DNA of 22,333 nt from Candidatus Rokuibacteriota bacterium (GTDB taxonomy: Bacteria > Methylomirabilota > Methylomirabilia > Rokubacteriales > CSP1-6), in contig JACPCX010000137.1 of assembly GCA_016184305.1 (NCBI GenBank), positions 1-22,333 on the forward strand. The letters are read 5' to 3'. The position numbers were made by a program, and so were the translations under genes. Below are positions 1,788 to 22,333 of the stretch, piece by piece. A model generated the notes under the pieces. It was given only the letters and a program-made list of their open reading frames with translations, was not told the DNA's origin and made no database searches. The number at the start of each line of letters is the position of its first letter. Positions within the stretch are counted from its first letter, which is position 1.

Positions 1788-1788
1788 G

Positions 1789-4776: not shown

Positions 4777-5535
<759 letters not shown>

Positions 5536-5543
<8 letters not shown>

Positions 5544-6683: not shown

Positions 6684-6699
6684 TCATGCGCGTCTCCAG

Positions 6700-6722: not shown

Positions 6723-6781
6723 GATGGGACTGGCCCGCGCCAGCTCTCGCTCGGCTGGGAGCCGGCGGGGCTGAGCGTGCC

Positions 6782-6810
6782 TTGACGGACTCCGCCCGGT
6801 GTCGTAGTCT
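6782..6810 (+). promoter_or_regulatory. Sigma70-type promoter for operon B
   Basis: -35 TTGACG (6782-6787), 17-nt spacer, -10 TAGTCT (6805-6810); the ATG lies 10 nt further on. Confidence 0.7.
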
Positions 6811-6820
6811 TGCCGAATCC

Positions 6821-7573
6821 ATGAGGCTGGCCGAGAAGGTAGCGCTCGTCACGGGCGGGAGTCGGGGGATGGGTCGCGCCATAGCGCTGGGGTTCGCGCG
6901 GGAAGGCGCCGACGTGGCCGTCAACTACCGGACCCACGAGGGTGAAGCCCTGTCGGCCGTGAAGGAGATCCAGGCGCTGGGCCGGCGCGCCATCGCGGTC
7001 AAGGCGGACGTGGGCCGCGGCGGCGAGGTTGCCGCGATGGTGGACCGTGTCATCCAGGCGCTGGGCCGGATCGACATCCTCGTGAACAACGCGGGGATCA
7101 TGAAGCGCACGCCCTTGCTCGAGATCAGCGAGGCCGAGTGGGATGCGATCCTCGACACCAACCTCAAGGGCTGCTTCCTGGTCACCCAGGCGGTAGCCCG
7201 GGAGATGGTGAAGCGCCGGAGCGGCGTCATCATCAACATGTCCTCCATCGGCCAGCAGGTCGCCGCCCGCAACATGACCCACTACAACACCTCGAAGGGC
7301 GGGATTGCCCAGCTCACCCGCCAGGCGGCGCTGGAGCTGGTGGACCACGGGATCCGGGTGAACGCCCTCTGCCCGGGCTTGATCGAGACCGACATGAATC
7401 GCCAGGACATCGCGCAGGAAGAGTTCCGCGCCACGCGCCTGGCCGGCATCCCGATGAAGGTCATCGGAACCCCTGAGGACATGGTGGGGCCGGCCCTCTT
7501 CCTCGCCTCGGACGAGTCGCGGCTGGTGACCGGGACGCATCTCTTCGTGGATGCCGGCCTCACGATGATCTAG
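6821..7573 (+). CDS. Classical short-chain dehydrogenase/reductase (FabG/glucose 1-dehydrogenase-like)
   Basis: TGGSRGMG, VNNAG, NMSS, catalytic YNTSK and IRVNALCPG. ATG 6821 preferred, since the TTG at 6782 is part of the -35 box. Confidence 0.95.
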   Translation: MRLAEKVALVTGGSRGMGRAIALGFAREGADVAVNYRTHEGEALSAVKEIQALGRRAIAVKADVGRGGEVAAMVDRVIQALGRIDILVNNAGIMKRTPLLEISEAEWDAILDTNLKGCFLVTQAVAREMVKRRSGVIINMSSIGQQVAARNMTHYNTSKGGIAQLTRQAALELVDHGIRVNALCPGLIETDMNRQDIAQEEFRATRLAGIPMKVIGTPEDMVGPALFLASDESRLVTGTHLFVDAGLTMI

Positions 7574-7584
7574 GGGGGACCCGC

Positions 7585-9009
7585 ATGAAGGTTCCGTACT
7601 ACTACACGTCGCTGGACTGGAAGGCGCTGGTCCGCGAGTACCCGCCCTCCAAGGATTTCGCCGAGACCGTCTTCCGCTATGACCGGAAGAAGATCGCGCA
7701 GGTGCAGAATCGCCGCTTCCTGGAGATCGTGGAGTACGCCTGGCGCAACCCGTTCTACCGCCGGCGCTGGCAGGCCCATGGGCTCAGGAAGGGTGACATC
7801 AAGTCCGCCAAGGACATCGTGAAGCTTCCGATGGTGACGGTGGAGGACTTCAAGGAGGGGATCAAGGCCAAGCCCCCCTTCGGCGAGCACCAGGGGCTCG
7901 GGACGCGCGACGGGGTCCGGACCCCGATCAAGATCCAGTCGAGCGGCGGGACCACGGGGATGCCCCGGCCGACGCTCTTCACGCCCTGGGAATGGGAGAT
8001 CCAGGGCATCCAGGGGTCGCGAGCGCTGTGGATCCAGGGCGCCCGCCCCGGCGACGTGATGCAGATCCCGGCCACCCTGTACACGGCGAATCTCGGGTGG
8101 TTCTTTTACCTGAGCTGTTTCCACTGGTCCGGCGTGCTCCCGGTCACAACCGGAAGCGGCAACGTGACCCCGAGCCGGCGCCAACTCGAAGTCGCGTTCG
8201 AGTGGGGCACGAACCTGTGGGCGGCGTTTCCCGAGTACCTGATGCACCTGGCCTCGGTGGCCGGGCAGGAAGGGTTCGACCTCAAGAAGCTCAAGACCAA
8301 GTTCATCGCCGCCTTCCTCGGCCCTGATCTCGACGGCTCCCTCCGGAAGCTGATGGAGGGGACCTGGCACTGCCCCGTGTACGACAACTACGGAACCCAC
8401 GAGGTGGGCCTTCCCGCCTTCGAGTGCCGCGAGCAGGACGGGCTCCACATGATGGAGGACATGTTCATCGTCGAGGTCGCCGACGTGGATACCGACGAGA
8501 TCCTGCCGGCCGGCGAGAAAGGGAACCTGGTCATGACGAGCCTCTATCGTCATCACCCGCCGCTCATTCGCTACAACCTCCGGGACTATATCCGGCTCGT
8601 GAGCGACGGCACCCGGCGCTGCGGCTGCGGCTCGCACTTCCAGAAGATGGATCACTTCCTCGGGCGGAGCGACGACATGGTGAAGCTCCGCGGGACCAAC
8701 GTCTTCCCCATGGCGTGCCTGGGGGCCGTGACCGGGGACGACCGGACCACCGGCGAGTGGCTCTGCGTGGTGGAGCGGAAGGAGTCCGGCCTCGATATCC
8801 GGGACGAGATGACGGTCAACGTCGAGGTGAAGGAGGGCGCCGCCGATCGCGAGGGTCTCAAGGCCAAGCTGGAGGACCGGCTCAAGTCCGACCTCGGCGT
8901 CAAGGTGACGGTGGAGCTGGTTCCCGCCGCGAGCCTGGCCGCCTACACCTACGGCCGCGAGGGGAAAGCCAAGCGGCTTGTCGACCGACGCTTCGGGAAG
9001 AACGCATGA
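7585..9009 (+). CDS. Phenylacetate-CoA ligase (PaaK) family adenylate-forming enzyme
   Basis: P-loop SSGGTTGMP, YDNYGTHE, LIRYNLRD, CGCG and GRSDDMVKLRGTNVFP; C-terminal KAKRLVDRR. Confidence 0.88.
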   Translation: MKVPYYYTSLDWKALVREYPPSKDFAETVFRYDRKKIAQVQNRRFLEIVEYAWRNPFYRRRWQAHGLRKGDIKSAKDIVKLPMVTVEDFKEGIKAKPPFGEHQGLGTRDGVRTPIKIQSSGGTTGMPRPTLFTPWEWEIQGIQGSRALWIQGARPGDVMQIPATLYTANLGWFFYLSCFHWSGVLPVTTGSGNVTPSRRQLEVAFEWGTNLWAAFPEYLMHLASVAGQEGFDLKKLKTKFIAAFLGPDLDGSLRKLMEGTWHCPVYDNYGTHEVGLPAFECREQDGLHMMEDMFIVEVADVDTDEILPAGEKGNLVMTSLYRHHPPLIRYNLRDYIRLVSDGTRRCGCGSHFQKMDHFLGRSDDMVKLRGTNVFPMACLGAVTGDDRTTGEWLCVVERKESGLDIRDEMTVNVEVKEGAADREGLKAKLEDRLKSDLGVKVTVELVPAASLAAYTYGREGKAKRLVDRRFGKNA

Positions 9010-10034
9010 TCAAGTTCGGGGTCATGGCAAACAGCCACCCCGGGTCAGCGGAGGCCCTGTCGCGGCTGGTGGACGAGATGACCGCGGAGGCTCAGCAGGC
9101 GGAGCAATACGGCTTCGACTCGTTCTTCGTGACCGAGCACCACCAGGAGCCCTCCGGGTACCTGCCGTCGCCCCTGCCGCTGCTGGCGGCCCTGGCCGCG
9201 CGCACCTCGACGATCCGCCTCGGCACCGGCATCGCGGTGCTTCCCCTGTACCACCCCGTCAGACTCGCCGAGGACTGCGCCGTCATCGACATCATCTCCA
9301 AGGGGCGCCTGATCCTGGGTGTGGGGCTGGGCTATCAGGAGGTGGACTTCGCCGCCTACGGTCTCCGCGTGAGCGACCGCGTCTCGCTCTTCGAGGAGGG
9401 CATCGAGATCGTCAAGCGGGCCTGGACGGAGGAGAGGCTCTCCTTCGCCGGCAAGCGCTATACGCTCACCGGCATCAGCGTCACCCCCAAGCCGGTGCAG
9501 AAGCCGCGCCCGCCCATCTGGATCGCCGGGGTTGGCGACGAGGCGATGAAGCGCGCCGGGCGGGTGGGGGACGCCCTTCTGGCCGACTCGTTCCAGCTTC
9601 CGGCGCGACTCAAGCGGCGGACGGACCTGTACCGGCAGACGGCGGAGAGCCGCGGCAATCGCGCCCAGGTGGTGCTCTTCCGGGAGGGCTTCGTGGCGAA
9701 GACGCGCGAGGAGGCGGTGCGCGAGTACGAGCAGGCAGTGCTCAGCACCCACCGCTACTACTGGCGCCATGGGTCCTATTACCAGGACATCAAGAAGGAG
9801 GAGGATCTGGATTTCAAGCGGATCGGGCTGGACCGGCTGATCCTGGGGTCGCCCCAGGACTGCGCCGAGCGGATCCGCGCGTGGAACGCGGAGATCGGCG
9901 CCGACTACTTCCTGATCCGCTTCAAGCACCCGGCCGGTCCGCCTCACGCGAAGGTCATGGAGGCGCTCAGGCTTTTCGGCGAGGAGGTTATCCCGAAGTT
10001 CCGCTTCCCCCAGGGGGAACAGGAGGACACATGA
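9006..10034 (+). CDS. LLM-class (luciferase-like) flavin-dependent oxidoreductase
   Basis: AEQYGFDSFFVTEHH, RTSTIRLGTGI, HPVRLAED, GRLILGVGLGY and PKPVQKPRPPIWIAG; ATGA overlap at 9006-9009. Confidence 0.93.
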   Translation: MIKFGVMANSHPGSAEALSRLVDEMTAEAQQAEQYGFDSFFVTEHHQEPSGYLPSPLPLLAALAARTSTIRLGTGIAVLPLYHPVRLAEDCAVIDIISKGRLILGVGLGYQEVDFAAYGLRVSDRVSLFEEGIEIVKRAWTEERLSFAGKRYTLTGISVTPKPVQKPRPPIWIAGVGDEAMKRAGRVGDALLADSFQLPARLKRRTDLYRQTAESRGNRAQVVLFREGFVAKTREEAVREYEQAVLSTHRYYWRHGSYYQDIKKEEDLDFKRIGLDRLILGSPQDCAERIRAWNAEIGADYFLIRFKHPAGPPHAKVMEALRLFGEEVIPKFRFPQGEQEDT

Positions 10035-11239
10035 TGAAGGGGCAACGGTGTCATGGGTGGGTGCTCATGCTGGCCGCGGTGCTTGCGCTCGGCACGGCCG
10101 CGCCGGCGGCGGCCGCCGAGAAGACCCTCGAGATCGGGGTGCTCGGGCCGCTCTCCGGCGGAGCCGCGTCCTACGGCGTGGAGCTGCTCCGGGGCGCCGA
10201 GATGCGCTCCGACGAGATCAACAAGGCCGGCGGGCTCAAGGTCGGGGGCGACGTCTACAAGATCAAGCTCATCGCCTACGACCACAAGGCCAGCGCGGCC
10301 GATGCCGCGACGGCCGCCAACAAGCTCGTCTTTCAGGACAAGGTGAAGTACATCATCGGCAACGCGGTGGGCGCGACCTGCAACGCCGTGCAGACGGTGA
10401 CGGAGCCGCAGAAGGTGATGTTCGCCTTCGTCTGCTGGGGAACCAATAATCTGGGGCCCGACAAGCCGCACTCCTTCCGCTCGATGCTGAGCCAGTGGGA
10501 GGCGGCCGAGCCCTTCTACCGCTGGATCAAGGAGAAACGCCCGACCATCAAGAAGGTGGCGGTGATCTCGCCCAACGACACGAGCGGGCTCGACACCAAT
10601 ACGGCCGTGGTCAAGGCGGTCAAGGGCCTCGCCCTCGATCTGGCCGCGGAGGAGACCTACGAGCGCGGGACCAAGGACTTCTACCCGATCCTGACGAAGA
10701 TCCTGGCCAAGAAGCCGGACCTGCTCGACGTGGCGGCGGCACCGCCCGCCGAGGCCGGCCTGATCCTCAAGCAGGCGCACGAGCTCGGGTTCAGGGGCGC
10801 CAAGGGGTGGACCGCCGGCGTCAATCCAGTCACCCTGGTGGGCATCGCCGGCGTGGAGGCGGCGGAAGGCGTCTGGAGCCCGGTCAATATCAACGTCAGG
10901 AGCGACTTCGTGGACCCGAAGGTCCGGAAGTTCGGCGACGAGTACGAGAAGCGCTACAAGGAAGTGCCCGGGGTGATCGCGGTGGCCAACTACGGCGCCT
11001 TCGATGTCTTCACCAAGGCGATGCAGGAGGCCGGCTCGGTCGAGACCGACAAGGTGCTGGCCGCGTTGACCTCGCGGCCGTACGACACGGTCTGGGGTCG
11101 CCTCGTGATCGGCGGGAAGGAGACGTACCGGATCGACCGGCAGTTCCTCTACCCGATGGTGATCAGCGAGATCCGCGGGGGGAAGATCGTGGACATCGAG
11201 CAGGTGCTGCCTGCCGCTCTCAAGGCGCTGACGAAGTAG
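10031..11239 (+). CDS. ABC transporter substrate-binding protein, LIV/type 1 periplasmic binding family
   Basis: AGGAGG RBS at 10021-10026; signal peptide ending APAAAA-EK; IGVLGPLSGGAASYG, INKAGGLKVGG and TKDFYPILTKI motifs. Confidence 0.92.
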   Translation: MMKGQRCHGWVLMLAAVLALGTAAPAAAAEKTLEIGVLGPLSGGAASYGVELLRGAEMRSDEINKAGGLKVGGDVYKIKLIAYDHKASAADAATAANKLVFQDKVKYIIGNAVGATCNAVQTVTEPQKVMFAFVCWGTNNLGPDKPHSFRSMLSQWEAAEPFYRWIKEKRPTIKKVAVISPNDTSGLDTNTAVVKAVKGLALDLAAEETYERGTKDFYPILTKILAKKPDLLDVAAAPPAEAGLILKQAHELGFRGAKGWTAGVNPVTLVGIAGVEAAEGVWSPVNINVRSDFVDPKVRKFGDEYEKRYKEVPGVIAVANYGAFDVFTKAMQEAGSVETDKVLAALTSRPYDTVWGRLVIGGKETYRIDRQFLYPMVISEIRGGKIVDIEQVLPAALKALTK

Positions 11240-11246
11240 GCGCTTT

Positions 11247-11278
11247 GCGGGGGGTGGGAGCCGGCTCCCACCCCCCGC
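11247..11278. repeat. Perfect 32-bp palindrome between the SBP and permease genes
   Basis: GCGGGGGGTGGGAGCC|GGCTCCCACCCCCCGC; the second half is the exact reverse complement of the first. Confidence 0.92.
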
Positions 11279-11288
11279 CGCCCCTGGC

Positions 11289-12149
11289 ATGCCGATCGAG
11301 CTCCTGGTCCAGGCGCTGCTGAACGGGTTCGCGCTGGCGCTCGTGTACGTGCTGGTGGCGCTGGGCCTCACCCTGATCTTCTCGATCCTCGGGATCATCA
11401 ATTTCGCCCACGGCGAGTTTTACATGCTCGGCGGCTACGCCACCTACTTCGGCGTCGCGGTCTTCGGGCTTCACTACGTCCCGACGCTTCTCCTGGCGAT
11501 CGGCGCCGTCGGGCTGGCGGGGGTCGTCGCCGAGCGGTTGATCTTCCGGCACCTGCGCGGGAAAACCCTCAATGCCTTCATCGTTTCCCTGGGGCTGCTC
11601 TGGGTCCTGCAGTCCGGAGCCCAGCTCACCTTCGGCGTCCTGGACAAGCCGGTGCCGTCAGCCTTCTCCGGGATCATTCGCGCCGGCCGGGTCATCATCT
11701 CCGTCGAGCGGTTCGTCGTGGTGCTCGCCGCGGTGGGGCTCATCGCCGTCCTGTACGCGTTCCTCCAGTGGACCCGCGTGGGCCGGGCCATGCGGGCGGT
11801 GGCCCAGGACCCCGACGGCGCGGCGCTCCAGGGCGTCAACATCGAGTTCACCTCCATGCTCGGCTTCGCCGTCGGCTGCGCCCTGGCCGGAGCCGCCGGC
11901 GGCCTGCTGGCGCCGGTTTTCGCGGTGAGCCCGCCCATGGGGGCGCTCCCGGTGGTCAAGGCGTTCATCATCATCATCGTCGGCGGGATGGGCAGCCTCC
12001 CGGGCGCGGTGCTGGGCGGCCTCCTGCTGGGAACGGTGGAGGGGATCGGCTCGCTCTTCTTCAGCAGCGCCGCGGTCAACGTCCTCGGCTTCCTCATGGT
12101 GATCGCGGTGCTGCTGGTGAGGCCGCGGGGGCTCTTCGGTGCCGCCTAG
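11289..12149 (+). CDS. livH: LIV-type ABC transporter permease, LivH-like
   Basis: GLTLIFSILGIINFAHGEF, GRAMRAVAQD and IIVGGMGSLPGA motifs. Confidence 0.94.
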   Translation: MPIELLVQALLNGFALALVYVLVALGLTLIFSILGIINFAHGEFYMLGGYATYFGVAVFGLHYVPTLLLAIGAVGLAGVVAERLIFRHLRGKTLNAFIVSLGLLWVLQSGAQLTFGVLDKPVPSAFSGIIRAGRVIISVERFVVVLAAVGLIAVLYAFLQWTRVGRAMRAVAQDPDGAALQGVNIEFTSMLGFAVGCALAGAAGGLLAPVFAVSPPMGALPVVKAFIIIIVGGMGSLPGAVLGGLLLGTVEGIGSLFFSSAAVNVLGFLMVIAVLLVRPRGLFGAA

Positions 12150-13152
12150 CCCCGCCCTCCGGCGCGCGCTGATCGGCTACGGGCTCCTCGCGGCCGGGAG
12201 CCTGGGCCTCCCGCTCGTGACCCGGGACTCGTACCACGTGGACGTGGCCACCACGATCCTCATGAATCTCGTCCTCACGATGAGCCTCCGCCTCGAGATC
12301 AGCACGGGGCAGCTCAACATGGCTCACATCTCGTTCATGGGAATCGGCGCCTACGCCTCGACCATCCTGATGATGCGGGGCGGCTACTCATTCTGGATCA
12401 CGCTCTGGGTGGCGGGGGTGATGGCCGCCATCTGGGCAGTCCCCATCGGGGGCCTGGCGCTCCGCGTGAGCGGCCCGTACTACTTCCTGATCACGTTCGC
12501 CTTCTCCGAGGTGGTTCGCCTCATCTTCAACAACTTCTTCGCCGAGTGGTTCGGAGGACCCTCGGGGCTCGTCCAGATCCCGAAGCCCGATCCCCTCCAC
12601 CTGCCCGGCGTCCAGCTGACCTTCGTGGGGAAAGTGGAGCTCTACTATCTGATGTGCGCCCTGCTCCTCCTGGCGGCCGCGGTCCTGGTGCGCCTGGACT
12701 ACTCGCGCTTCGGCCTCGCGGGCAACGCCATCCGCCAGGGCGACGTCCTGGCGGAGACGCTGGGGGTCTGGGTGTTCCGCTACAAGCTCACGGCGTTCGT
12801 CCTCGGGAGCTTCATGGCGGGAATCGCCGGGGCCTTCTTCGCCCACTCCCACCAGGTCCTCCACTCGAGCGACTTCGGCCTCGAGCCGATGGTGCTCCTG
12901 GTCGTCTTCACGGTCATCGGAGGAACGGGGAGCGTCTGGGGGCCGGTGGTGGGCACCGTGGTGCTGACGATCGCCTCCGAGTTCATGCGTGAATTCCACT
13001 ACTACGAGATCCTCGTCTACGGCTCGGTGCTGATCCTGACCATGTTGCTCTTGCCGGAGGGGCTCATCTCGCTGCCGGGAAAGCTGGGTTCTCTTGTCCG
13101 GCGCGGCCGCGGAGGCGAGGCGGAGGCCATGGAGGCCGGCGTTGCTCCTTGA
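12139..13152 (+). CDS. livM: LIV-type ABC transporter permease, LivM-like
   Basis: TGQLNMAHISFMGIGAY, LRVSGPYYFLIT, IGGTGSVWGP and LPEGL motifs. Confidence 0.92.
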   Translation: MPPSPALRRALIGYGLLAAGSLGLPLVTRDSYHVDVATTILMNLVLTMSLRLEISTGQLNMAHISFMGIGAYASTILMMRGGYSFWITLWVAGVMAAIWAVPIGGLALRVSGPYYFLITFAFSEVVRLIFNNFFAEWFGGPSGLVQIPKPDPLHLPGVQLTFVGKVELYYLMCALLLLAAAVLVRLDYSRFGLAGNAIRQGDVLAETLGVWVFRYKLTAFVLGSFMAGIAGAFFAHSHQVLHSSDFGLEPMVLLVVFTVIGGTGSVWGPVVGTVVLTIASEFMREFHYYEILVYGSVLILTMLLLPEGLISLPGKLGSLVRRGRGGEAEAMEAGVAP

Positions 13153-13915
13153 CATCAGGCACGTCACGCGGGGGTTCGGAGGGCTCGTGGCCGTCTCCGA
13201 CCTCTCCATGGTGGTGACGCCGGGCGCGATCCACGGCCTGATCGGCCCCAACGGCGCCGGCAAGAGCACGGTCTTCAACCTGATCTCGGGCGTCCTCTCA
13301 CTCTCCGCCGGCGAGATCTTCTTCAAGGGGGAGCGGATCTCGGGGCTGAGGCCGTCCGAGATCTGCCGGCGGGGGGTGGCGCGCACGTTCCAGGCGACCA
13401 CGCTCTTTCGGGAATTCACGGTGCTCCAGAATCTCCTCGTCGCGGCCCACCTGCGGGCGGCGGACGGGCTCGCGCCGGCGCTGTTTGCCTCACCCGCGTA
13501 CCGGCGGAAGGAGCGCGAGGCGCTGGCCAGCGCGCGGGAGAACCTGACCTCCCTCGGCCTCGGCGGGACCGCCCAGGCGGGGCGCTCGGTGGAGAAGCTG
13601 CCGCACCGGGACCAGAAGGCCCTCAGCATCGCCATGGCGCTCGCCACGGGCGCGGAGCTGGTGCTTCTGGACGAGCCCCTGGCCGGCCTCACCGCCCGGG
13701 AGCGGGAGGAGACGCTGGGCGCGCTGCGGCGTCTCCGGGATCGGGGGCTCACGATCCTCCTGGTGGAGCACGACATGAAGGCGGTGATGGGGCTCTGCGA
13801 CGTCGTCACGGTTCTCGACCACGGTGTCCGGATCGCGGAGGGCACGCCCCGGGAGATCCAGGAGAATCCGGCCGTGATCGAGGCGTATCTGGGGGCGGAG
13901 GACGCGCGTGCTTGA
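13142..13915 (+). CDS. livG: LIV-type ABC transporter ATP-binding protein, LivG-like
   Basis: GPNGAGKST, ARTFQ, LLDEPLAG, VEHDM and VIEAYLG. TTG 13142 is preceded by GGAGG at 13131-13135. Confidence 0.92.
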   Translation: MLLDIRHVTRGFGGLVAVSDLSMVVTPGAIHGLIGPNGAGKSTVFNLISGVLSLSAGEIFFKGERISGLRPSEICRRGVARTFQATTLFREFTVLQNLLVAAHLRAADGLAPALFASPAYRRKEREALASARENLTSLGLGGTAQAGRSVEKLPHRDQKALSIAMALATGAELVLLDEPLAGLTAREREETLGALRRLRDRGLTILLVEHDMKAVMGLCDVVTVLDHGVRIAEGTPREIQENPAVIEAYLGAEDARA

Positions 13916-14615
13916 GGTGACGGACCTGCGCGTCCGGTACGGCAACGTCGTGGCCGTGGCCGGCGTGTCGCTCTCGGTGGCCGACGGCGAGATCGTGGCG
14001 GTTATCGGTCCCAACGGAGCCGGGAAGACCTCCACGCTCCGCGCCATCTCGGGGCTGGTGCGCCCCTCGGCCGGTCGGATCAGCTTCAACGGCACCGACA
14101 TCGCCGGCTGGAAGGCCCACCGGATCGTGGCGCTGGGACTGAGCCATGCCCCCGAGGGGCGGCGGCTCTTCCCGCAGATGACCGTGCTCGAGAACCTCAA
14201 GATGGGCGCCTATCTCCGGGGGAACGGCGCTGCTCTGGAGCGCACGCTCCAGGAGGTCGTGGCCCGCTTCCCGCGACTCGCGGAGCGCCGCCGCCAGCGG
14301 GCGGGGACGCTCTCGGGGGGCGAACAGCAGATGCTGGCGATCGGCCGCGCCCTCATGGCGGAGCCCCGGATGCTGATCCTGGACGAGCCGTCCTTCGGCC
14401 TGGCGCCGATGGTGGTGACGGAGATCGGGCGAGTCATCCAGGCGATCAACCGCGCGCGGAAGGTGGCGGTCCTCCTGGTGGAGCAGAACGCGCGGATGGC
14501 GCTCTCGATCTCCGCCCGCACCTACGTGATGGAAACCGGCACGATCGTGCTCGAGGGCCTCTCTGCGAGCCTCCGCGAGAGCCCGCACGTCAAGGCGGCG
14601 TACCTCGGAGGATGA
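13908..14615 (+). CDS. livF: LIV-type ABC transporter ATP-binding protein, LivF-like
   Basis: GPNGAGKTS, PEGRRLF, LSGGEQQMLAIGR, LDEPSFGL and VEQN motifs. Confidence 0.95.
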   Translation: MLEVTDLRVRYGNVVAVAGVSLSVADGEIVAVIGPNGAGKTSTLRAISGLVRPSAGRISFNGTDIAGWKAHRIVALGLSHAPEGRRLFPQMTVLENLKMGAYLRGNGAALERTLQEVVARFPRLAERRRQRAGTLSGGEQQMLAIGRALMAEPRMLILDEPSFGLAPMVVTEIGRVIQAINRARKVAVLLVEQNARMALSISARTYVMETGTIVLEGLSASLRESPHVKAAYLGG

Positions 14616-15568
14616 TGGCCATGGCCCCTCTCCGGTTCGGGCTCGTGCTGGGCGCCTTCTCGGACGAAATTCCCGGCCAGAAGGAGCTCGGCGACTTCGC
14701 GCGGAGGGCGGAAGCCGTCGGGTTCGACTCCGTCCAGGTCGGGGACCACGTCCAGTGGCGCGCCCCGATCCTGGAGTCGACCACGGTGATGGCCACCTTC
14801 GCCGCCGTGACCGACCGCATCAAGATCGCCAGCGACATCATCATCTTGCCGCTGCGGGATCCGGTGCTCATGGCGAAGACGATGGCCAGCCTGGACGTGG
14901 TATCGGGCGGGCGCATGATCTTCGGGATCGGCGTCGGGGGGGACTACCCCCTGGAATTCGCGGCAATGCGGATCCCGGTGGGGGAGCGCGGTGCCCGGGC
15001 CAACGAGAGCCTGGACATCATCAAGGGTCTCTGGGCGAACGAGCGCTTCAGCTACGAGGGCAGGCACTTCAGCATCCGCGACGTGGAGATCTCACCCCGG
15101 CCGATCCAGCCCTCCATCCCCATCTGGGTTGGCGGGTCGTCGGACGCGGCGCTGCGCCGGGCCGCCCGGTATGGCGACGGCTGGATTCCCGCCTTCTCCA
15201 GCGCCAGCAAGTTCGCGCGCCTGTCATCGGACCTCCGCCGTCTCCTGCAGGAGGGGGGGAGGACGGCGGAGGCGTTCACCTTCGGGGTGTACCTGTTCGC
15301 CAACGTGGACCCGGACCCCGGGCGGGCGCTCGAGGCCGCCGCGGAATACATCGAGCGTGTGTACCAGCTCGACGGGGTGCGGACCATGGAGCGCTCCGGG
15401 GTGACGGGACCGCCGGAGGGTTGCGCGGGGCGGATCATCCCCTACGTGGAGGCGGGAGCGGATCACGTCGTCCTGGCGCCGATGTCCAGCTCCCGCGATT
15501 GGCCGCGCCAGATCGAGGGCTACGCGGAGGTCATCGAGCATGTCCGGCGGCGGGCAGGAGGCCGGTGA
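14612..15568 (+). CDS. LLM-class flavin- or F420-dependent oxidoreductase
   Basis: AEAVGFDSVQVGDHV, LPLRDPVLMAK, SGGRMIFGIGVG and PIWVGGSSDAALRRAARYGDGW. Start is one of ATG 14612, 14615 or 14621. Confidence 0.92.
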   Translation: MMAMAPLRFGLVLGAFSDEIPGQKELGDFARRAEAVGFDSVQVGDHVQWRAPILESTTVMATFAAVTDRIKIASDIIILPLRDPVLMAKTMASLDVVSGGRMIFGIGVGGDYPLEFAAMRIPVGERGARANESLDIIKGLWANERFSYEGRHFSIRDVEISPRPIQPSIPIWVGGSSDAALRRAARYGDGWIPAFSSASKFARLSSDLRRLLQEGGRTAEAFTFGVYLFANVDPDPGRALEAAAEYIERVYQLDGVRTMERSGVTGPPEGCAGRIIPYVEAGADHVVLAPMSSSRDWPRQIEGYAEVIEHVRRRAGGR

Positions 15569-16398
15569 TGGGCGACGAGACGATCCTGGTCGAGAGCGCG
15601 GGGGCCATCCGCCGGATCCGCATGAACCGGCCGGAAAAGCTGAATGCGCAGAATCCCGCGCTGATCAACGCGATGGACGCGGCGTTCGCGGCGGCGGCGG
15701 CCGATCCCGGCGTCCGTGTCATCATCCTCTCCGGGGAGGGGCGCGCCTTTTCCGCCGGCCACGATCTGGAGTACCCGGGCTTCGACCGGCGCGGCTACAC
15801 CTACCAGACGCGGCTCGACATGGAGCGGGAGACCTTCATCGAGAAGATGCTCAGGATCCGGAATCTCCCGAAGCCCACCATCGCGCAGGTCCACGGGCAT
15901 TGCGTGGCGGCCGGACTGATGCTGGCGTGCATGTGCGACCTGATCGTCTGCGACGAGACCGCGCGGTTCTCGAACCCCGTGCTCCAGATGGCGCTGGCCG
16001 GCGTCCAGCTCCTGGTGGAGCCGTGGGAGATCGGAGCCCGGAAGGCCAAGGAGCTCCTCTGGACGGCGGAGGCGCTGACGGCCGAGGACGCCCAGCGGCT
16101 GGGGCTCGTCAACCGCGTGGTCCCGAGCGACAGGCTGGAGGAGGAGGTGACGGCGCTCGCCCTCCGGATCGCCGCGCTGCCGGCCTTCGCCGTCCGCGCC
16201 GTGAAGAAGACCATCAACGATACGCAGGACTTCATGGGGCAGGGGCGGGCGTGGGAGCACCACTTCCTCCTCCACGTGGCCGCCAAGCGGAGCGAAGAGT
16301 ATGGCCAGTGGTGGGACGCGGTCGAGCGGGAGGGTGGGGGATTCAAGCCCGGAGGGCTCGCGGCGACGCTGCGGAAGCGCCGGGCGGACTCGGCGTGA
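15568..16398 (+). CDS. Crotonase (enoyl-CoA hydratase/isomerase) superfamily protein
   Basis: NRPEKLNA, GRAFSAGHDL, KPTIAQVHG and GLVNRVVP; TGATG overlap with the upstream gene. Confidence 0.92.
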   Translation: MGDETILVESAGAIRRIRMNRPEKLNAQNPALINAMDAAFAAAAADPGVRVIILSGEGRAFSAGHDLEYPGFDRRGYTYQTRLDMERETFIEKMLRIRNLPKPTIAQVHGHCVAAGLMLACMCDLIVCDETARFSNPVLQMALAGVQLLVEPWEIGARKAKELLWTAEALTAEDAQRLGLVNRVVPSDRLEEEVTALALRIAALPAFAVRAVKKTINDTQDFMGQGRAWEHHFLLHVAAKRSEEYGQWWDAVEREGGGFKPGGLAATLRKRRADSA

Positions 16399-16925
16399 GG
16401 CCGGACGGTGTCTTCCCCTACGGCCGTCACCGGCCCCGGATCCACTCCACCGCGTTCGTCACGCCGGGGACCTACATCATCGGCCGCGTGACGATCAAGC
16501 GGGACGCCAGCGTCTGGTTCGGGGCCGTCCTGCGCGGCGACGCCCAGCCCATCGTCATCGGCGAGGGCAGCCTCGTCGAGGACAACGTGGTGGTGCACGG
16601 GCGGGTCGTCGTCGGCCGGCGGTGCGTCATCGGCCACGGGGTGATCCTGCACGGGTGCTCCGTGGCGGCGGGAGCGGTGATCGGGGCCAATGCCGTGGTC
16701 TTCGACGGCGCCCGGATCGGGGCCGGCGCCCTGGTCGCCGCTGGGTCGGTGGTGTACCCGAAGACGCGGGTGCCGCCGCGCACGGTGTTCAGGAACTCGG
16801 CCGCCGGGAACCACCCCGTGCTGGAGGCGATCGGCAACCGGCTCAGACGATGGGACGGGGCGGCGTACCGGCGGCTCATCCGGACCTACCGGAAGACGGA
16901 GGCGGCGGGGAGGCGACAGCGATGA
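16395..16925 (+). CDS. Gamma-carbonic-anhydrase-like left-handed beta-helix protein (YrdA/CaiE/PaaY family)
   Basis: IIGRVTI, SVWFGAVLRGD and hexapeptide repeats; three His codons at 16596, 16635 and 16650; GTGA and ATGA overlaps with both neighbours. Confidence 0.88.
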   Translation: MRPDGVFPYGRHRPRIHSTAFVTPGTYIIGRVTIKRDASVWFGAVLRGDAQPIVIGEGSLVEDNVVVHGRVVVGRRCVIGHGVILHGCSVAAGAVIGANAVVFDGARIGAGALVAAGSVVYPKTRVPPRTVFRNSAAGNHPVLEAIGNRLRRWDGAAYRRLIRTYRKTEAAGRRQR

Positions 16926-18550
16926 GCTTTCAGACGCGTCTGAGCAAGGAGCTGATCGAGCGGTACACGCGCGCCGGCCACTGGGGGAGCGAGACCTTCT
17001 CCCAGATCCTGGCGCGGCAGGCGGCGGCCCACCCGGAGCGCGAGGTGCTGGTGGACGGGCGCCACCGCGTCACGTACGGCGAGCTCAAGGCCCGCGTCGA
17101 CCGGGTCGCCGCCAAGCTGGGGGCGCTGGGCATCGGCCGGGGCGACGTGGTGACGATCCAGCTCCCCAACTGCGTCGAGTTCGCCTATGTCTTCTTCGCC
17201 CTCGAGCGCCTGGGGGCGGTCGCCAACCAGATCGGCCCGGATTTCCGGAGCCGCGAAGTGGAGTACATCAACCGTTTCTCCGAAAGCCGCGCCTTCGTCT
17301 GCCCGGCCGCCTTCAAGGGCTTCGACTACATCGGGATGATCGAGGAGCTCAGGCCGAAGCTGCCGGCTCTCAAGACGGTCTGCGTCCTCGGCGGCCGGGG
17401 GGACGGCACCGTCTCCCTGGACGACATCGTGTACGGCGACGATCCGGTCTCGCTGCGGGCCGAGCCCCTGGGGGCCGACGACGTGATGCGGATGGCGTTC
17501 ACCTCCGGCACCACCGGAAACCCCAAGGGCGTGATCCACAGCCACAACACGACCCTGTCCGCCTGCCGGAACCTGAACCGCGACATGGACGTGAGCGAGC
17601 GGGACGTCTTCCTGATCTACCTGCCGCTCGGGCTCAACTGGGGGTATCTCACGCTCGTCCAGGCGGTGCTGGCGGGCGCCCGCGCCGTCCTCCTGGACCA
17701 GTTCAGCGGCCGCGCGGCGCTGGAGCTGATCGACAGGGAGCGGGTGACCTTCATCCCCACCGCCCCGGCGTCCATCATCGCGATGCTGAACGAGCCCGAT
17801 TTCGGGCGCTTCACCCTGTCGTCGCTCCGGGTGGTCATCACCGGGGGCGCCTCCTGTGCCGTCGAGACCATCCGGGAGTTCCGCGCGCGGATGCGCGGGC
17901 ACCTGATCGAACTCTACGGCATGCTGGAGACCGGCTTCCACACCTACACGCGCTTCTCGGACGATCCCGAGGCGGTGACGGGGACGGTGGGGAAGCCCTC
18001 CTCGGGCCTGGGGCTCCGGCTCATCGACGAGCACGGGCGGGACGTGCCGCCGGGAGCGGCAGGGGAGATCGCGGCCGACGGCCCGTCGGTACACCTGGGC
18101 TACCACAAGAACCCCACGGCGAACGCCGAGCTCTTCACAGCGGATGGCTGGTTCCGCACGGGCGACCTGGGCCAGTTCGACCAGGCCGGCAACCTCAAGA
18201 TCGTCGGCAGGCTCAAGGAGATGATCAACCGCGGCGGGAAGAAGTTCTTCCCGCGCGAGATCGAGGAGATCCTCTACACGCATCCCAAGATCCTGCACGC
18301 GGCCATCGTCGGCGTCCCCGATCCGCGCCTGGGGGAGCGGAACTGCCTCTGCGTCATCCCCCGGCCCGGTGAGCGCATCTCGCTGGAGGAGATCGTGGCG
18401 TTCCTGAAGGACGGGGTCGCCACGTACAAGCTCCCGGAGATGGTCGAGGTCTTCGAGGAGCTGCCGTTCACACCGACCGGGAAGATCCAGCGTCATGTGC
18501 TCGCCAGCCAGGTCCTCGAGCGACGGCGGCAAGTCGACGCCGGCGGTTGA
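16922..18550 (+). CDS. AMP-forming acyl/aryl-CoA synthetase (ANL superfamily; cyclohexanecarboxylate-CoA-ligase-like N-terminus)
   Basis: FTSGTTGNPKG, YGMLE, GWFRTGD, GRLKEMINRGG and TPTGKIQR motifs. Confidence 0.93.
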   Translation: MSFQTRLSKELIERYTRAGHWGSETFSQILARQAAAHPEREVLVDGRHRVTYGELKARVDRVAAKLGALGIGRGDVVTIQLPNCVEFAYVFFALERLGAVANQIGPDFRSREVEYINRFSESRAFVCPAAFKGFDYIGMIEELRPKLPALKTVCVLGGRGDGTVSLDDIVYGDDPVSLRAEPLGADDVMRMAFTSGTTGNPKGVIHSHNTTLSACRNLNRDMDVSERDVFLIYLPLGLNWGYLTLVQAVLAGARAVLLDQFSGRAALELIDRERVTFIPTAPASIIAMLNEPDFGRFTLSSLRVVITGGASCAVETIREFRARMRGHLIELYGMLETGFHTYTRFSDDPEAVTGTVGKPSSGLGLRLIDEHGRDVPPGAAGEIAADGPSVHLGYHKNPTANAELFTADGWFRTGDLGQFDQAGNLKIVGRLKEMINRGGKKFFPREIEEILYTHPKILHAAIVGVPDPRLGERNCLCVIPRPGERISLEEIVAFLKDGVATYKLPEMVEVFEELPFTPTGKIQRHVLASQVLERRRQVDAGG

Positions 18551-18666
18551 CGGATCCAGGCGGCCTCCGGGCAAGTCCATCTGAGCCTGGAGGGAAGGGG
18601 CGACCGCTTCTCGATGGCCTCGGGCCCTGCGCCGGGCGGGGTCGTGGCGACCCGGCCTCGGCGCCC

Positions 18667-18717
18667 TCCAGCGCCGCCCCGTGCCGGCAGCGCGCTGCCG
18701 GGGCGGGGTGGGGTGGA
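18667..18717. repeat. Long GC-rich inverted repeat with a perfect 18-bp core; possible terminator of operon B
   Basis: Core CCGGCAGCG|CGCTGCCGG (18684-18701), extended by CCGCCCCG/CGGGGTGG arms. Confidence 0.7.
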
Positions 18718-18726
18718 AGAATTCGG

Positions 18727-18754
18727 TTGCACAATGTCCGGACATGCGTATATT
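18727..18754 (+). promoter_or_regulatory. Sigma70-type promoter with a palindromic operator in the spacer
   Basis: -35 TTGCAC (18727-18732), 16-nt spacer, -10 TATATT (18749-18754); perfect palindrome ATGTCCGGACAT at 18734-18745; locally AT-rich. Confidence 0.75.
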
Positions 18755-18761
18755 CGCACTG

Positions 18762-19556
18762 ATGCGCCGGGGGCCCGTGCCGCTCTACCACCAGATCCAG
18801 GAGCTCGTCCGGGCGCGTATCGCTGCGGGCGACTACGCGGCGGGTGCGGCCCTGCCCACGGATGAGGCGCTGATGCGCGAGTTCGGCGTGAGCCGCCACA
18901 CGGTCCGGGCCGCGATCCAGCAGCTCGTGGCCGAGGGGCTCATCGAGCGCTTCCCCGGGCGCGGCAGCTTCGTCGTCGAGCGGGCGCGGCGGGCGAGCCG
19001 GTGGACGATCGAGTCGGTCGAGGACCTCATCGACACGAGCTTCGCCCACACCTACAAGGTCCTGTCCGCTCGCTTCATACCCTCGCGCGCCTTCCCGCGC
19101 ATCGCCGAGCTGCTCGGCGAGAGCCGGTCGCTGTTCCACGTCCGCGCCGTCCGCGCCTCGACGGAGGGGCCGTACGCGTACTCCAACGTCTGGTTCCCCG
19201 GGGACATCGGCGAGAAGCTCCCGCGTCACCTGTTCGCCAAGCGTCCGCTCGTGCTGCTCGTGGAGGAGTACTGCGGGTGGCCGGCGTTCCGCACCCTGCA
19301 GACGGCGCTCGCGGCGCTCGCGGACCGCGATGGCGCGCGACACCTGGGCGTCGCCTTCGGCGACCCCGTGCTCGTCCTCGAACGCACCTACTTCGGCGCG
19401 GACGACCATCCCCTCGAGCACACGCGCATCCAGTACCGCCCGGACCGCTACCAGCAGGTCGTGAACTTCTCGCGCCGGCAGGCGCCGCCGTACCTGCCGT
19501 CGCCCGAGACCGAGTCCCGGCACCCGAGAGGAGACCAGCATGGCGCCACGCGCTGA
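18762..19556 (+). CDS. GntR family transcriptional regulator, HutC/UTRA subfamily
   Basis: PLYHQI..LPTDEALMREFGVSRHTVRAAIQQLVAEGLIERFPGRGSFV winged HTH; UTRA-like C-terminus (PVLVLERTYF..PLEHTRIQYRPDRY). Confidence 0.93.
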   Translation: MRRGPVPLYHQIQELVRARIAAGDYAAGAALPTDEALMREFGVSRHTVRAAIQQLVAEGLIERFPGRGSFVVERARRASRWTIESVEDLIDTSFAHTYKVLSARFIPSRAFPRIAELLGESRSLFHVRAVRASTEGPYAYSNVWFPGDIGEKLPRHLFAKRPLVLLVEEYCGWPAFRTLQTALAALADRDGARHLGVAFGDPVLVLERTYFGADDHPLEHTRIQYRPDRYQQVVNFSRRQAPPYLPSPETESRHPRGDQHGATR

Positions 19557-20802
19557 CCGCTTCGGCCACCCGATCGATCCCACCGTCTCGTACGCGCGTG
19601 GGCCGATCCTCACGAGCGAGCTCGAGGAGACGCTGCGGCAGCGTCACGGGTACGAGTTGATCCGCGAGCGGGTCGCGCGCGGCGGTGACGACGCCGTCTT
19701 CAACCTGACGGGCCTGATCCGCGGCTTTCCGTTCAAGCCCGGCGACGACGCGTGGCTGCGCTCCTACATCCACTTCCACGCCAGGAACCACGGGGACCTC
19801 GAGACACTGGCCCTCAAGATTCTCGGCGGCGACCCGCAGGAGCACGACGGCTTCCTGGCGACCCGCGTGAGCGCCGGGATCCTGGCCGTCATGCTGGCCA
19901 CGCTCGCGCCGGACGACCTCGTGCTCTCGCTCGTGCCCGCCGACCGTTCGCACCCGTCGATCCGGCAGTCGGTGGACCTGGCCCGCGGCCGCTTCGAAGA
20001 GGTCATCGGCCTGCCCGCGTTCGAGGCGGCGCTCGCCAGTGGCGCGCGGCCGCGGCTCGTGGTGATCAGCACGATCGGCCCCTCCAAGCACCACCTGCCG
20101 GCGGCCGACGTCGTGGCCGCCGCGCGCTTGGCGCGCGGCGCGGGCGCCTTGCTCATGCTCGACGACGCCCACATGGCGGCGCGGCTCGCCTATTACGAGG
20201 AGGCGCCCGGGCTCGCCCTCGCGGACCCGGACGTCACGGTGTGGTCGCTGGACAAGCATCTCGGCGGCCCGCGCTCCGGCTTTGTGGCCGGGCGCAAGGC
20301 GCTGGTCGGGCGCGCGCGCGCCCGGGCCTTCGCGCTCGGGCTGGAGGCGCAGCCCGCGCAGTACGTGGCCGGCCTGCGCGCACTCGAGGCGTGGGATCCC
20401 GAGCCGATCCGCCGGTGCGGCGAGATGGCGCGGCGTCTGTTCCCGCTCCTTCAGGAATCCACGGGCGGGCGCGCGTACATGGCGGGCCCCGGGCTCGCCG
20501 TCGCCGGCGAGGATCTCCTCGACCTGGCGCTCGCGCGCGCGGCAGGCCGCCGGTCGTCGCTGGTACCGGTGGAGGCGGTGGCGGTGGCCTCGTTCGCGAT
20601 GATGGAGCGGGACGGCGTGATCACCATCCCGGTCACGGGCATGCCCGGCGCGGCATGCGTGGTGCGGCTCATGATGTACCCGGACGGGCTGCGGCTCGGC
20701 GACCGGACGGTGCTGGAGGCGGCCGCGCACGGCGTGGCGACGCTGGTCGACGTGCTCGACCAGCCGGAGCGCGCGTCGCGACTGATCCTCGGGGCGGCCT
20801 GA
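19540..20802 (+). CDS. SelA-like fold-type I PLP-dependent enzyme resembling the MJ0158 family; function unknown
   Basis: DDAH (PLP Asp), SLDKHLGGPRSG (PLP Lys, AAG 20254-20256), FNLTGL..GF, SHPSI and GLEAQP; RBS GAGGAG. Confidence 0.8.
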   Translation: MAPRADRFGHPIDPTVSYARGPILTSELEETLRQRHGYELIRERVARGGDDAVFNLTGLIRGFPFKPGDDAWLRSYIHFHARNHGDLETLALKILGGDPQEHDGFLATRVSAGILAVMLATLAPDDLVLSLVPADRSHPSIRQSVDLARGRFEEVIGLPAFEAALASGARPRLVVISTIGPSKHHLPAADVVAAARLARGAGALLMLDDAHMAARLAYYEEAPGLALADPDVTVWSLDKHLGGPRSGFVAGRKALVGRARARAFALGLEAQPAQYVAGLRALEAWDPEPIRRCGEMARRLFPLLQESTGGRAYMAGPGLAVAGEDLLDLALARAAGRRSSLVPVEAVAVASFAMMERDGVITIPVTGMPGAACVVRLMMYPDGLRLGDRTVLEAAAHGVATLVDVLDQPERASRLILGAA

Positions 20803-20819
20803 GCGGAGGGGAGAGAGGC

Positions 20820-22136
20820 ATGGACAGGGCGAAGGTCAAGGAGATCGTCGACACGTGGATGATTCCCACGCCGGGGACGGCGTACATGGCCGGCCTCGAG
20901 CACCGGCCGGTGCTCGCCTCGGCCTCGGGCAGCACCGTCGTGGACACCGGCGGGCGCGAGTACCTCGACTTCCAGTCGGGGCAGATGGGCGCCGCCCTCG
21001 GCCACCGACACCCGCGCGTGATGGCCGCCATCGCGGAGAGCACGCGAACGATCGTCCACGCGTCGAATACCATGCTGAACCGGCCGCGGCTGCTCCTGCA
21101 CGAGCGCCTCGGCCGGCTGCTGACGCCGCCGCTCCAGAAATCGCTGTTCCTCGTGAGCGGCAGTGACTCCATCGAGGCGTCCGTCGACCTCGCGCGCAAC
21201 GCGACGGGCGGGCACGACATCCTCGGGCTGCACGACGGCCTGCACGGCTCCACCTCGCTCGTGTCGCGCTCGCTGAGCTTCGGCTGGCAGCGGAGCAAGC
21301 ACGCGGCGGTGGCGCCGGGGACCTCCGCGATCCTCACGCCCGACTGCTACCGCTGCCCCGTCGCCACGCGCTACCCCGGCTGCGACTTCCTCTGTCTCAA
21401 GACGAGCTTCGAGCTGGCCGACGCCAACTTCACCGCCAGGCCGGCGGCCGTCATCGCCGAGCCGGTCCTCAGCGCTGGCGGGGTCATCGTGCCGCCGCCC
21501 GGCTACGTCCAGGCGCTCCGCCGGGCGTGCGACGAGCGTGGGATGCTCCTGATCTTCGACGAGGCGCAGACGGGCCTGGGGAAGAGCGGCAAGATGTTCT
21601 GCTACGAGCACGAGGACGTCGTCCCCGACGTCATGGCGCTCTCCAAGCACTTCGGCGGGGGGCTGCCGATCAGCGCCGTGTGCACCACGGCGGCGCTCGC
21701 CGAGCAGGCGGTCCGACGCGGCTACTTCGCGACGCGGTCGCACGCCACCGATCCGATCCTCTGCGCGGCGGGGCTCGCGAGCCTCGACGTGATCGTGGAG
21801 GAGGACATGCCGGGACGCGCGGCGCGCATCGAGCGGCGCATGAAGGGCGCGTTGACGGAGATGGCCAAGAAGTTCGAGATCATCGGCGACATCCGCGGCC
21901 GCGGCGTCCTGCTCGGCGTCGAGCTGGTGACCGACCGCGAGCGCAAGACGCCCGCGAACCAGGAGGCCGACGCCATCGCGCGCCACTGCCTGGACAACGG
22001 CCTCATCTTCCAGGTGCGCGGCAGCCACGGCCGCACGAACGTCCTCCGCTTCGTCCCGCCGATGGTGACGACGGATGCGGAGGTCGAGCGGGCCCTCTCC
22101 ATTCTCAACGATGCGTTCACTGCCGTCGCGCGCTAG
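20820..22136 (+). CDS. Class III PLP aminotransferase, 2,2-dialkylglycine decarboxylase (DgdA)-like
   Basis: YLDFQSGQMGAALGH, AEPVLSAGG, LIFDEAQTGLG, LSKH (Lys 21645-21647), GDIRGRG and LRFVPP motifs. Confidence 0.9.
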   Translation: MDRAKVKEIVDTWMIPTPGTAYMAGLEHRPVLASASGSTVVDTGGREYLDFQSGQMGAALGHRHPRVMAAIAESTRTIVHASNTMLNRPRLLLHERLGRLLTPPLQKSLFLVSGSDSIEASVDLARNATGGHDILGLHDGLHGSTSLVSRSLSFGWQRSKHAAVAPGTSAILTPDCYRCPVATRYPGCDFLCLKTSFELADANFTARPAAVIAEPVLSAGGVIVPPPGYVQALRRACDERGMLLIFDEAQTGLGKSGKMFCYEHEDVVPDVMALSKHFGGGLPISAVCTTAALAEQAVRRGYFATRSHATDPILCAAGLASLDVIVEEDMPGRAARIERRMKGALTEMAKKFEIIGDIRGRGVLLGVELVTDRERKTPANQEADAIARHCLDNGLIFQVRGSHGRTNVLRFVPPMVTTDAEVERALSILNDAFTAVAR

Positions 22137-22154
22137 CGCGCCAGGGAGGAATTC

Positions 22155-22333
22155 ATGAAGCGGATCGGACTCGGCATCGTCCTCGGCGCGGTCGCGATGC
22201 TCCTGACGCTCTCCCCGTGGTCGTACGCGCAGAAGATCAAGGCGCTCGCCGACGACGGCATGACCATGGTGATCGTCACGCACGAGATGCAGTTCGCGCG
22301 CGAGGTCGCCCACCGCATCGTGTTCCTCGATGC
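22155..22333 (+). pseudogene. Chimeric ORF: Sec-type signal peptide fused in frame to the C-terminal part of a polar-amino-acid ABC ATPase (GlnQ-like); runs off the window
   Basis: RBS GGGAGGA, then [27 protein letters not shown] followed directly by [32 protein letters not shown]. Confidence 0.78.

Follow-up and report, generated by a model that had tools for sequence, protein, structure and literature searches.

At the 3′ end of contig JACPCX010000137.1 of a Candidatus Rokuibacteriota bacterium (assembly GCA_016184305.1), from position 18727 on, lie a GntR/UTRA regulator gene, two genes for different pyridoxal phosphate (PLP) enzymes, one MJ0158-like and one dialkylglycine decarboxylase (DGD)-like, and the beginning of an importer. 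The window, that is, the whole 22,333-nt stretch analysed, is an entire contig (C78) of the binned genome G000, a metagenome-assembled genome (MAG) of 3.2 Mb in 239 contigs that is 88.8% complete. We found that the MJ0158/DGD-like set is a genuine, uncharacterised catabolic module. The reading we favour, with reasonable though far from full confidence, is that it is the first half of an operon under repressor control, whose products degrade a non-standard amino acid taken up from outside, most likely one that is acidic and/or D-configured or N-/alpha-substituted, and not a simple dialkylglycine. The features of the region are as follows.

18548..18726, + strand: intergenic spacer with G+C-rich inverted repeats, for example a hairpin at 18674-18711; it parts the module from the upstream operon.
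18727..18754, + strand: promoter-like site, TTGCAC (-35, 18727-18732), 16 nt, TATATT (-10, 18749-18754).
18734..18745: perfect palindrome ATGTCCGGACAT between -35 and -10, candidate GntR operator; one exact copy in the window.
18744 (or 18762)..19556, + strand: GntR/UTRA regulator gene, assigned with Pfam; no ribosome-binding site seen.
19540..20802, + strand: gene for the MJ0158-like PLP enzyme, 420 aa; 17-nt overlap with the GntR gene, GGAGA 7 nt before the ATG.
20820..22136, + strand: gene for the DGD-like class-III PLP enzyme, 438 aa; 17-nt gap, strong Shine-Dalgarno stretch GGAGGGGAGAGAGG.
From 22155, + strand: fourth open reading frame (ORF); 18-nt gap, GGGAGG upstream.
22155..22235, + strand: start of a solute-binding-protein gene, coding for a 26-residue signal peptide; identical to codons 1-27 of SBP_bac_3 in metagenome contig L053 (gene at 7336-8169).
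22236..22333, + strand: C-terminal part of an ABC ATPase (positions 179-210 of 240 in the GlnQ model, ~179-225 over the NCBIfam models GlnQ/TcyN/HisP; blastn to L053 10109-10213).

The initial annotation, made from the DNA letters, had described four tightly spaced genes, and the spacing (a 17-nt overlap, then gaps of 17 and 18 nt) is borne out, as are the identities given to the first three through matches to Pfam, TIGR03576, 2AEU and DgdA. The GntR gene is translationally coupled to the MJ0158-like gene. In Pfam searches, the regulator showed a GntR domain (PF00392, 1.9e-21, residues 14-77) and a UTRA domain (PF07702, 2.7e-19, residues 101-237), and this combination of an N-terminal winged helix-turn-helix (wHTH) with a C-terminal UTRA domain is the architecture of the HutC subfamily. 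Like HutC and PhnF, it joins wHTH to UTRA, its gene heads a catabolic operon, and a palindromic operator, a candidate one in our case, overlaps the promoter. In contrast, it scores far below both of their equivalog cut-offs (107 vs 220 bits for HutC, 94 vs 157 for PhnF), and under every other NCBIfam equivalog cut-off as well.

The same annotation had given the module a promoter and operator of its own. A consensus promoter scan of 18300-22333 returned 0 sites, the -35 hexamer agreeing at 3/6 positions, and the palindrome ATGTCCGGACAT taken by itself is within chance (0.70 expected at <=2 mismatches). The scan and the palindrome frequency being insufficient alone, we make the call because the arrangement is conserved in a relative with 62-72% identical proteins. 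This relative is L003, a Rokubacteria MAG locus that shares with the window 62% identity in GntR and 72% in the MJ0158-like protein: TTGCAA, 16 nt and TATATT stand before the orthologous GntR gene, with the core TGTCCGGACA (2187-2196) arranged as in the window. The core was also found at 1122-1131 inside the divergent GntR/MJ0158-like spacer of L020, where GntR is 43% identical, and at the equivalent position in L053. Palindrome copies in L010 (11251) and L017 (9463) are off promoters and may be due to chance. ATG 18744 of the window is ATA in L003, which does keep the downstream ATG corresponding to 18762. Translation of GntR therefore probably begins at ATG 18762, with 8 nt between it and the -10 hexamer, which would make the mRNA leaderless. 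The GntR gene, both PLP genes and what follows make up one regulated transcription unit, served by a conserved promoter and a candidate palindromic operator of its own.

The fourth ORF had been taken for the start of an exported protein. The signal peptide of 26 residues is there, but the rest is the tail of an ATPase, and the two were fused by a deletion of ~2.7 kb relative to L053. That contig is 99.2% identical to window 14819-22244, and the last ~100 nt of the window match it ~2.7 kb further on. The junction (22235/22236) is in frame, has the microhomology CAAGGCG and lies 98 nt before the contig end. In sequencing run X1, one 2138-nt contig with a depth of 6.4 spans the joint with >255 nt on either side, going from 7415 to 10115 in L053 numbering and skipping 2699 nt; past the joint, it runs into the start of the cmlA-like gene described below. 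Run X4, of the same study as X1, shows the identical joint. We considered that the contig end might be an assembly chimera, and this was ruled out by the independently assembled X1 contig across the joint and by the same joint in X4. Runs X1 and X4 also contain, at a depth of 2-4, fragments that match the deleted stretch exactly, and in X5 (soil) and X8 (groundwater), which come from other studies, only the intact form was seen. As the joint is spanned in both the X1 and X4 assemblies, it marks a real in-frame deletion allele, which coexists with an intact allele. Runs X1-X3 may be the source sample, and the joint is thus independent of the assembler, not of the sample; the public runs found were all DNA.

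Of the operon's importer, the deletion takes the two permeases entirely and the bulk of both the binding protein and the ATPase. The ABC importer that had been announced is therefore intact in L053, where all four genes of a polar-amino-acid (PAAT) system are present (SBP_bac_3, two BPD_transp_1 permeases, ATPase), but deleted in the window's strain, where the system is incomplete. The importer being lost, the pathway here depends on another transporter or is decaying. The only intact PAAT system found in the strain's own genome, a paralogue on contig C86 (~5267-9715, - strand), has an ATPase 61% identical to that of the module in L021 and is a candidate substitute.

The extent first given to the module, two PLP enzymes plus an importer, was correct as far as it went but incomplete. 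The order in L053 is GntR, MJ0158-like, DGD-like, SBP_bac_3, two permeases, ATPase, AtuA-family, DUF4387 and serine hydroxymethyltransferase (SHMT)-like. The AtuA-family gene (10316-11674) matches chain A of 9ERQ over its full length (5e-127, 428 bits), and the DUF4387 gene (11683-11985) matches chain B (4.5e-21). By homology, the two are predicted to form a citramalate-lyase (CmlAB)-like two-subunit lyase, the function being taken from the PDB molecule name, on which a literature search found no paper. Both adjacent subunits of CmlAB (9ERQ/9EVF) are thus homologous to the L053 pair, although the latter sits in an amino-acid-type operon and not in a glutamate-fermentation operon. The best match of the SHMT-like protein is an archaeal SHMT (180 bits), with an entry labelled 'threonine aldolase' in second place, and the protein is below the NCBIfam cut-offs.

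We then asked how often the two PLP genes go together, in 37 genome loci found from the MJ0158-like side, 20 closer ones among them, and in 80 metagenome loci found from the DGD-like side; neighbour genes were counted from tblastn and hidden Markov model (HMM) matches. The MJ0158-like orthologue is immediately preceded by a DGD-like gene (64-70% identical) in 7/37 genome loci, or 7/20 of the closer ones (L004, L005, L007, L009, L018, L019 and L021), from at least five proteobacterial lineages. Five of these, L004, L005, L009, L019 and L021, have the operon GntR, opine-dehydrogenase-like, ATPase, solute-binding protein (SBP), two permeases, DGD-like, MJ0158-like, to which L004 adds a CmlAB-like pair downstream and an SHMT gene upstream. 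From the other side, an MJ0158-family gene was found in the same operon in 14/80 DGD-like loci, as an orthologue in 6 and as a paralogue in 8 (29-35% identical; TIGR03576 157-193 bits), the order in the paralogue group being GntR, MJ0158-family, ABC, (class-IV aminotransferase), DGD-like. When only the 33 DGD-like loci with >=1.3 kb on both sides were considered, 11 had an MJ0158-family gene, L072 included. The two PLP genes thus co-occur in other genomes, facultatively, so that the pairing proposed in the initial annotation stands.

Gene order is variable, the MJ0158-like gene coming first in the window and the DGD-like gene first in Proteobacteria, and the MJ-linked rows fall in several clades of the DGD-like tree (a quick search with SH-aLRT support only). 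The MJ0158-like orthologue itself is rare. Within the class of G041, it was found at E<=1e-80 in 0/250 further genomes sampled, a profiling that scored up to 7 first-look candidates per genome and was uninformative since the orthologue was found in none; paralogues at 30-43% identity occur in 17/40 relatives of the same order. Because the orthologue is rare and the gene orders differ, the repeated adjacency is not chance. Judged from gene neighbourhoods, this recurrence would be hard to explain by accident and argues for a functional coupling.

We consider it very improbable that the genes have no pathway in common and simply adjoin in a horizontally mobile accessory cassette, or that they make up a biosynthetic set. 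Such a view could invoke that each PLP gene is met in many further contexts, that the MJ0158-like orthologue is patchy, the same-order relatives having only the 30-43% paralogues, and that the importer is dispensable in this strain. Yet translational coupling and a single conserved promoter/operator tie the genes together, and the pair comes back in other gene orders and as divergent paralogues. Moreover, the module includes a HutC-type repressor and an importer that depends on a binding protein, and we saw no export, nonribosomal peptide synthetase (NRPS) or ligase genes.

The MJ0158-like protein is a fold-type-I PLP enzyme with its PLP lysine, K239, in the motif S-L-D-K-H. K239 (21/21 homologues) and many Arg/His residues are invariant. 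TIGR03576 covers the protein end to end (E 5.1e-42, 144.3 bits, below the cut-off of 304.45), and the Pfam match to UPF0425_C is weak (23.8 vs a cut-off of 27). The only strong solved relative is MJ0158 of Methanocaldococcus jannaschii (2AEU/2AEV), which phmmer aligned to residues 25-398 with the S-x-D-K motif in register (2AEU, 1e-28). The AlphaFold model (pLDDT 92.4) led to the same protein, 2AEU being its top Foldseek match (E 1.8e-24, TM 0.62/0.70, 26% identity), followed by alpha-oxoamine synthases, threonine aldolase and SHMT. Full-length homology, the top structural match and an aligned PLP-lysine motif are therefore shared with MJ0158. In contrast, the window enzyme is only 26% identical, bacterial and ~50 residues longer, its relatives sit in GntR/transporter operons, and it remains below the curated cut-offs. 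We know of no function assigned to the MJ0158/UPF0425 family since the 2005 structure, and family membership gives no reaction. Homologues are mostly unnamed or auto-named, and an Atlas look-up returned only unnamed UPF0425_C and YhfS-like_C clusters.

A kinship with SelA and with the catabolic enzyme DgaE (D-glucosaminate-6-phosphate ammonia-lyase) had been suggested for this protein. All are fold-type-I PLP enzymes of the wider SelA/SepSecS neighbourhood, but the resemblance is at the superfamily, not the family, level. The SelA domain PF03841 gave no match at E<=0.01 in the Pfam search, and TIGR00474 matched 34 residues only (228-261, E 0.002). With no SelA-domain match in the MJ0158-like protein, the DgaE analogy is a remote one.

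The DGD-like protein is a class-III enzyme (Aminotran_3, 8.7e-80 with Pfam) with K276 as its PLP lysine. Its closest solved relative is DgdA of Burkholderia cepacia (1DKA, 1D7R), with 307 bits vs 219 for the next family and ~40% identity (162/404 columns, hand count). Aligned with 1D7R, the catalytic residues K272, D243, Q246, E210 and R406 of DgdA correspond to K276, D247, Q250, E214 and R410, and are kept in 188/188 members of the subfamily, which were drawn from every genomic context. Q52 of DgdA, which we take to be the residue steering decarboxylation, is Q55 here; it is equally kept in 188/188 members and is W in the caprolactam racemase 2ZUK, so that the DGD-like enzyme may have retained decarboxylative chemistry.

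The substrate pocket tells a different story from that of DgdA. W138, M141, S215, Y301 and N394, presumably the small-alkyl substrate pocket of DgdA, are replaced by L141, S144, A219, T305 and Q398, each in 188/188 members, and T302 is replaced by R306, an extra Arg that is invariant in the subfamily. Of the residues that we assume to form the alkali-metal (K+) site of DgdA (S80, T303, V305, D307), D307 is kept (D311), S80 has become N (138 members) or K (50), and T303 and V305, both main-chain ligands, have become S and A. Furthermore, an inserted Cys4 motif, C176-x2-C179-x8-C188-x3-C192, takes the place of a Cys-free stretch of DgdA in 187-188/188 members and is a possible Zn or Fe-S site. 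As the same pocket residues are found in all contexts, the subfamily probably carries out one reaction, which is unlikely to be that of DgdA, with dialkylglycine an unlikely substrate. To sum up this comparison, the class-III fold, the catalytic residues, D307 and Q52 are shared with DgdA; the pocket, S80, the added Arg306 and Cys4 motif, and a GntR regulator are not.

These data bear directly on the version that follows from the initial annotation, in which an alpha,alpha-disubstituted amino acid, such as 2-aminoisobutyrate, isovaline or alpha-methylserine, is imported and degraded, the DGD-like enzyme working as a true decarboxylating transaminase and the MJ0158-like one as a lyase. In its favour, DgdA stands well ahead of any other solved relative, Q52 is conserved, and an 'alpha-methyl' theme can be read in the partners: citramalate, to which the CmlAB-like pair points, is alpha-methylmalate, SHMT relatives include alpha-methylserine enzymes, and the alanine racemase-like genes found in related operons could take up D-alanine. 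Nevertheless, the five pocket residues are wholly replaced and Arg306 and Cys4 added, all of them invariant, which goes against an alpha,alpha-dialkyl substrate, and the same pocket is found beside DgcN/DgcA D-glutamate genes (see below). The regulator also differs, dgdA being under the LysR-type DgdR. We thus hold this interpretation to be unlikely.

The other genomic settings of each enzyme were informative about the kind of substrate. GntR/UTRA regulators are found in 14/20 closer MJ0158-like loci, and solute receptor or ABC genes adjoin in most. In the clade at ~40% identity, a TctC receptor adjoins the MJ0158-like gene in 9/14 examined loci. In L008, L013 and L022, the MJ0158-like gene comes right after a D-glutamate-cyclase-like gene (PF14336); these loci (~5830-8250 in L008 and L022, 1748-4195 in L013) have TctC downstream and a divergent GntR, and L013 adds a RidA-family gene. 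In L003, the MJ0158-like gene comes with a Dpp-type permease and a hydantoinase/oxoprolinase. Incidentally, two Bordetella genomes (L015 and L016, 9287-11800) have MJ0158-like and TctC genes with a gene for a large DUF3141 protein (bits >960) behind them.

On the DGD-like side, equivalogs of DgcN and DgcA (514 > 480 and 483 > 400 bits) are encoded directly downstream in 10/80 and 8/80 loci, respectively. The DGD-like orthologues concerned are 63-68% identical, with the identical pocket. The window and L053, in contrast, are devoid of dgcN and dgcA. Passages of two papers describe the DgcN-DgcA route of marine bacteria as converting D-Glu into L-Glu (PMC10845958, PMC12363236), and those passages on the pathway make no mention of a class-III enzyme beside dgcN/dgcA. 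The order DGD-like, dgcN, dgcA was seen in the marine loci L090, L093, L097, L099, L102, L103, L117 and L123 (~6001-9350 in full-flank loci).

A class-IV aminotransferase gene occurs in 8/80 DGD-like loci. Sister operons have a common layout, X, SBP, permeases, ATPase, (class-IV aminotransferase), DGD-like, in which X is either alanine-racemase-like (L055, L057-L059) or MJ0158-family (L060, L061, L063, L068, L071, L072). That the one takes the slot of the other hints at non-orthologous displacement.

Opine catabolism has also to be weighed. An N-(1-carboxyethyl)-amino acid would be cut by an opine-dehydrogenase-like enzyme into pyruvate and an amino acid, the latter feeding both PLP enzymes; in the window lineage, the free amino acid would be imported or another cleavage enzyme used. 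An Octopine_DH-domain gene, whose closest structure is 1BG6 (9.1e-42), N-(1-D-carboxyethyl)-L-norvaline dehydrogenase, stands between the GntR and ABC genes in 5/7 paired genome loci, and such a gene is found in 8/80 metagenome loci. All opine-dehydrogenase-like loci with enough downstream sequence show the MJ0158-like orthologue, and arginase-family genes lie near L010 and L108. However, neither the window nor L053 has an opine-dehydrogenase-like gene, the window lineage having CmlAB-like and SHMT-like genes instead, and opine dehydrogenases can equally be imine or oxo-acid reductases. We therefore give the opine route only a small chance.

The reading that we favour, catabolism of an imported non-standard amino acid, may then proceed as follows. 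The substrate or an early intermediate would act as the effector that frees GntR from ATGTCCGGACAT. The MJ0158-like enzyme would carry out the first committed PLP step at C-alpha/C-beta, a stereo-inversion or a beta-elimination/cleavage. The DGD-like enzyme would next pass the amino group on to a 2-oxo acid and, Q52 being kept, might decarboxylate at the same time. The CmlAB-like lyase would split a hydroxy/oxo-dicarboxylate skeleton into pyruvate and an acetate-type fragment, and the SHMT-like enzyme may take a beta-hydroxy or C1 branch. A more precise version can be put forward tentatively, as one possibility that we would not bet on: the MJ0158-family enzyme carries out the committed inversion or elimination on a non-proteinogenic acidic amino acid with D-, alpha-methyl or N-carboxyethyl substitution, the Cys4 DGD-like enzyme deaminates, and a CoA-independent CmlAB-type lyase yields pyruvate and acetate.

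Several observations weigh against this reading. The pairing is facultative and each enzyme occurs without the other: 13/20 closer MJ0158-like loci are without a DGD-like gene, and 66/80 DGD-like loci show no MJ0158-family gene, many of these being too short to tell. G044, which holds L003 and hence the closest MJ0158-like orthologue (72%), has no DGD-like gene at E<=1e-100. The lyase and SHMT partners are sparse, with the CmlAB-like pair in only 3/80 metagenome loci (L053, L076, L079) and 1/37 genome loci (L004), and the SHMT-like gene downstream in L053 only and upstream in L004. In the strain's own genome, given its 88.8% completeness, the CmlAB-like and SHMT-like genes had no match, nor did the opine-dehydrogenase-like gene with the query used. 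As to the chemistry, the idea of a racemase for the MJ0158-like step comes from slot equivalence alone, and position L141 of the DGD-like enzyme is Y in the caprolactam racemase 2ZUK, a Tyr that we take to be the second base of that racemase. Finally, the reaction order, the chemical steps and the substrate class are all deduced from family membership, neighbourhoods and residues.

A HutC-type repressor, an importer and catabolic enzymes make a conventional architecture. What appears new is the combination of enzymes, for which our literature search found no description; in line with the opinion first expressed that the pairing belongs to no characterised pathway, that search found none either, and no NCBIfam equivalog cut-off was reached. 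The bacterial branch of MJ0158/UPF0425 is now linked to operons for import and breakdown that have a defined regulator and a candidate operator, which offers a testable functional handle. Several cultured, non-pathogenic bacteria carry the full module, among them Stella vacuolata ATCC 43931, Oceanibaculum pacificum and a Hyphomicrobium sp. The contexts encountered (CmlAB-like, opine-dehydrogenase-like, DgcN/DgcA, class-IV aminotransferase and racemase-like) narrow the search for the substrate to amino acids that are acidic, D-configured or N-/alpha-substituted. In metagenomes from soil, groundwater and the sea, the DGD-like subfamily is abundant, with 5612 of the 8000 scored candidates matching at E<=1e-40, and its members bear the JGI auto-name '2,2-dialkylglycine decarboxylase'. 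Because the invariant pocket differs from that of DgdA, this label is probably wrong. The deletion polymorphism, for its part, shows importer loss within a natural population.

The window as a whole has a G+C content of ~70%, and its real genes are all on the + strand. Positions 1-18550 form a long co-directional run with two branched-chain (Liv)-type ABC importers, an HMGL-like lyase, an SDR, two AMP-ligases, a luciferase-like monooxygenase, an enoyl-CoA hydratase and a hexapeptide protein, and are probably a separate acyl-CoA catabolic region. The gene just upstream of the module is an AMP-ligase gene ending at 18550. It is followed by 193 nt of G+C-rich, hairpin-forming spacer, whose RNA fold reaches -113.2 kcal/mol (z -2.76 vs shuffled sequences); the promoter/terminator scan of 18300-22333 called no T-tract terminator. 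Further upstream (5536-6683), two overlapping frames share a family-III CoA-transferase between them: the frame at 5536-6279 matches positions 1-198 of profile PF02515 and the one at 5718-6683 matches positions 213-366; the split is a frameshift, due either to a pseudogene or to an assembly error.

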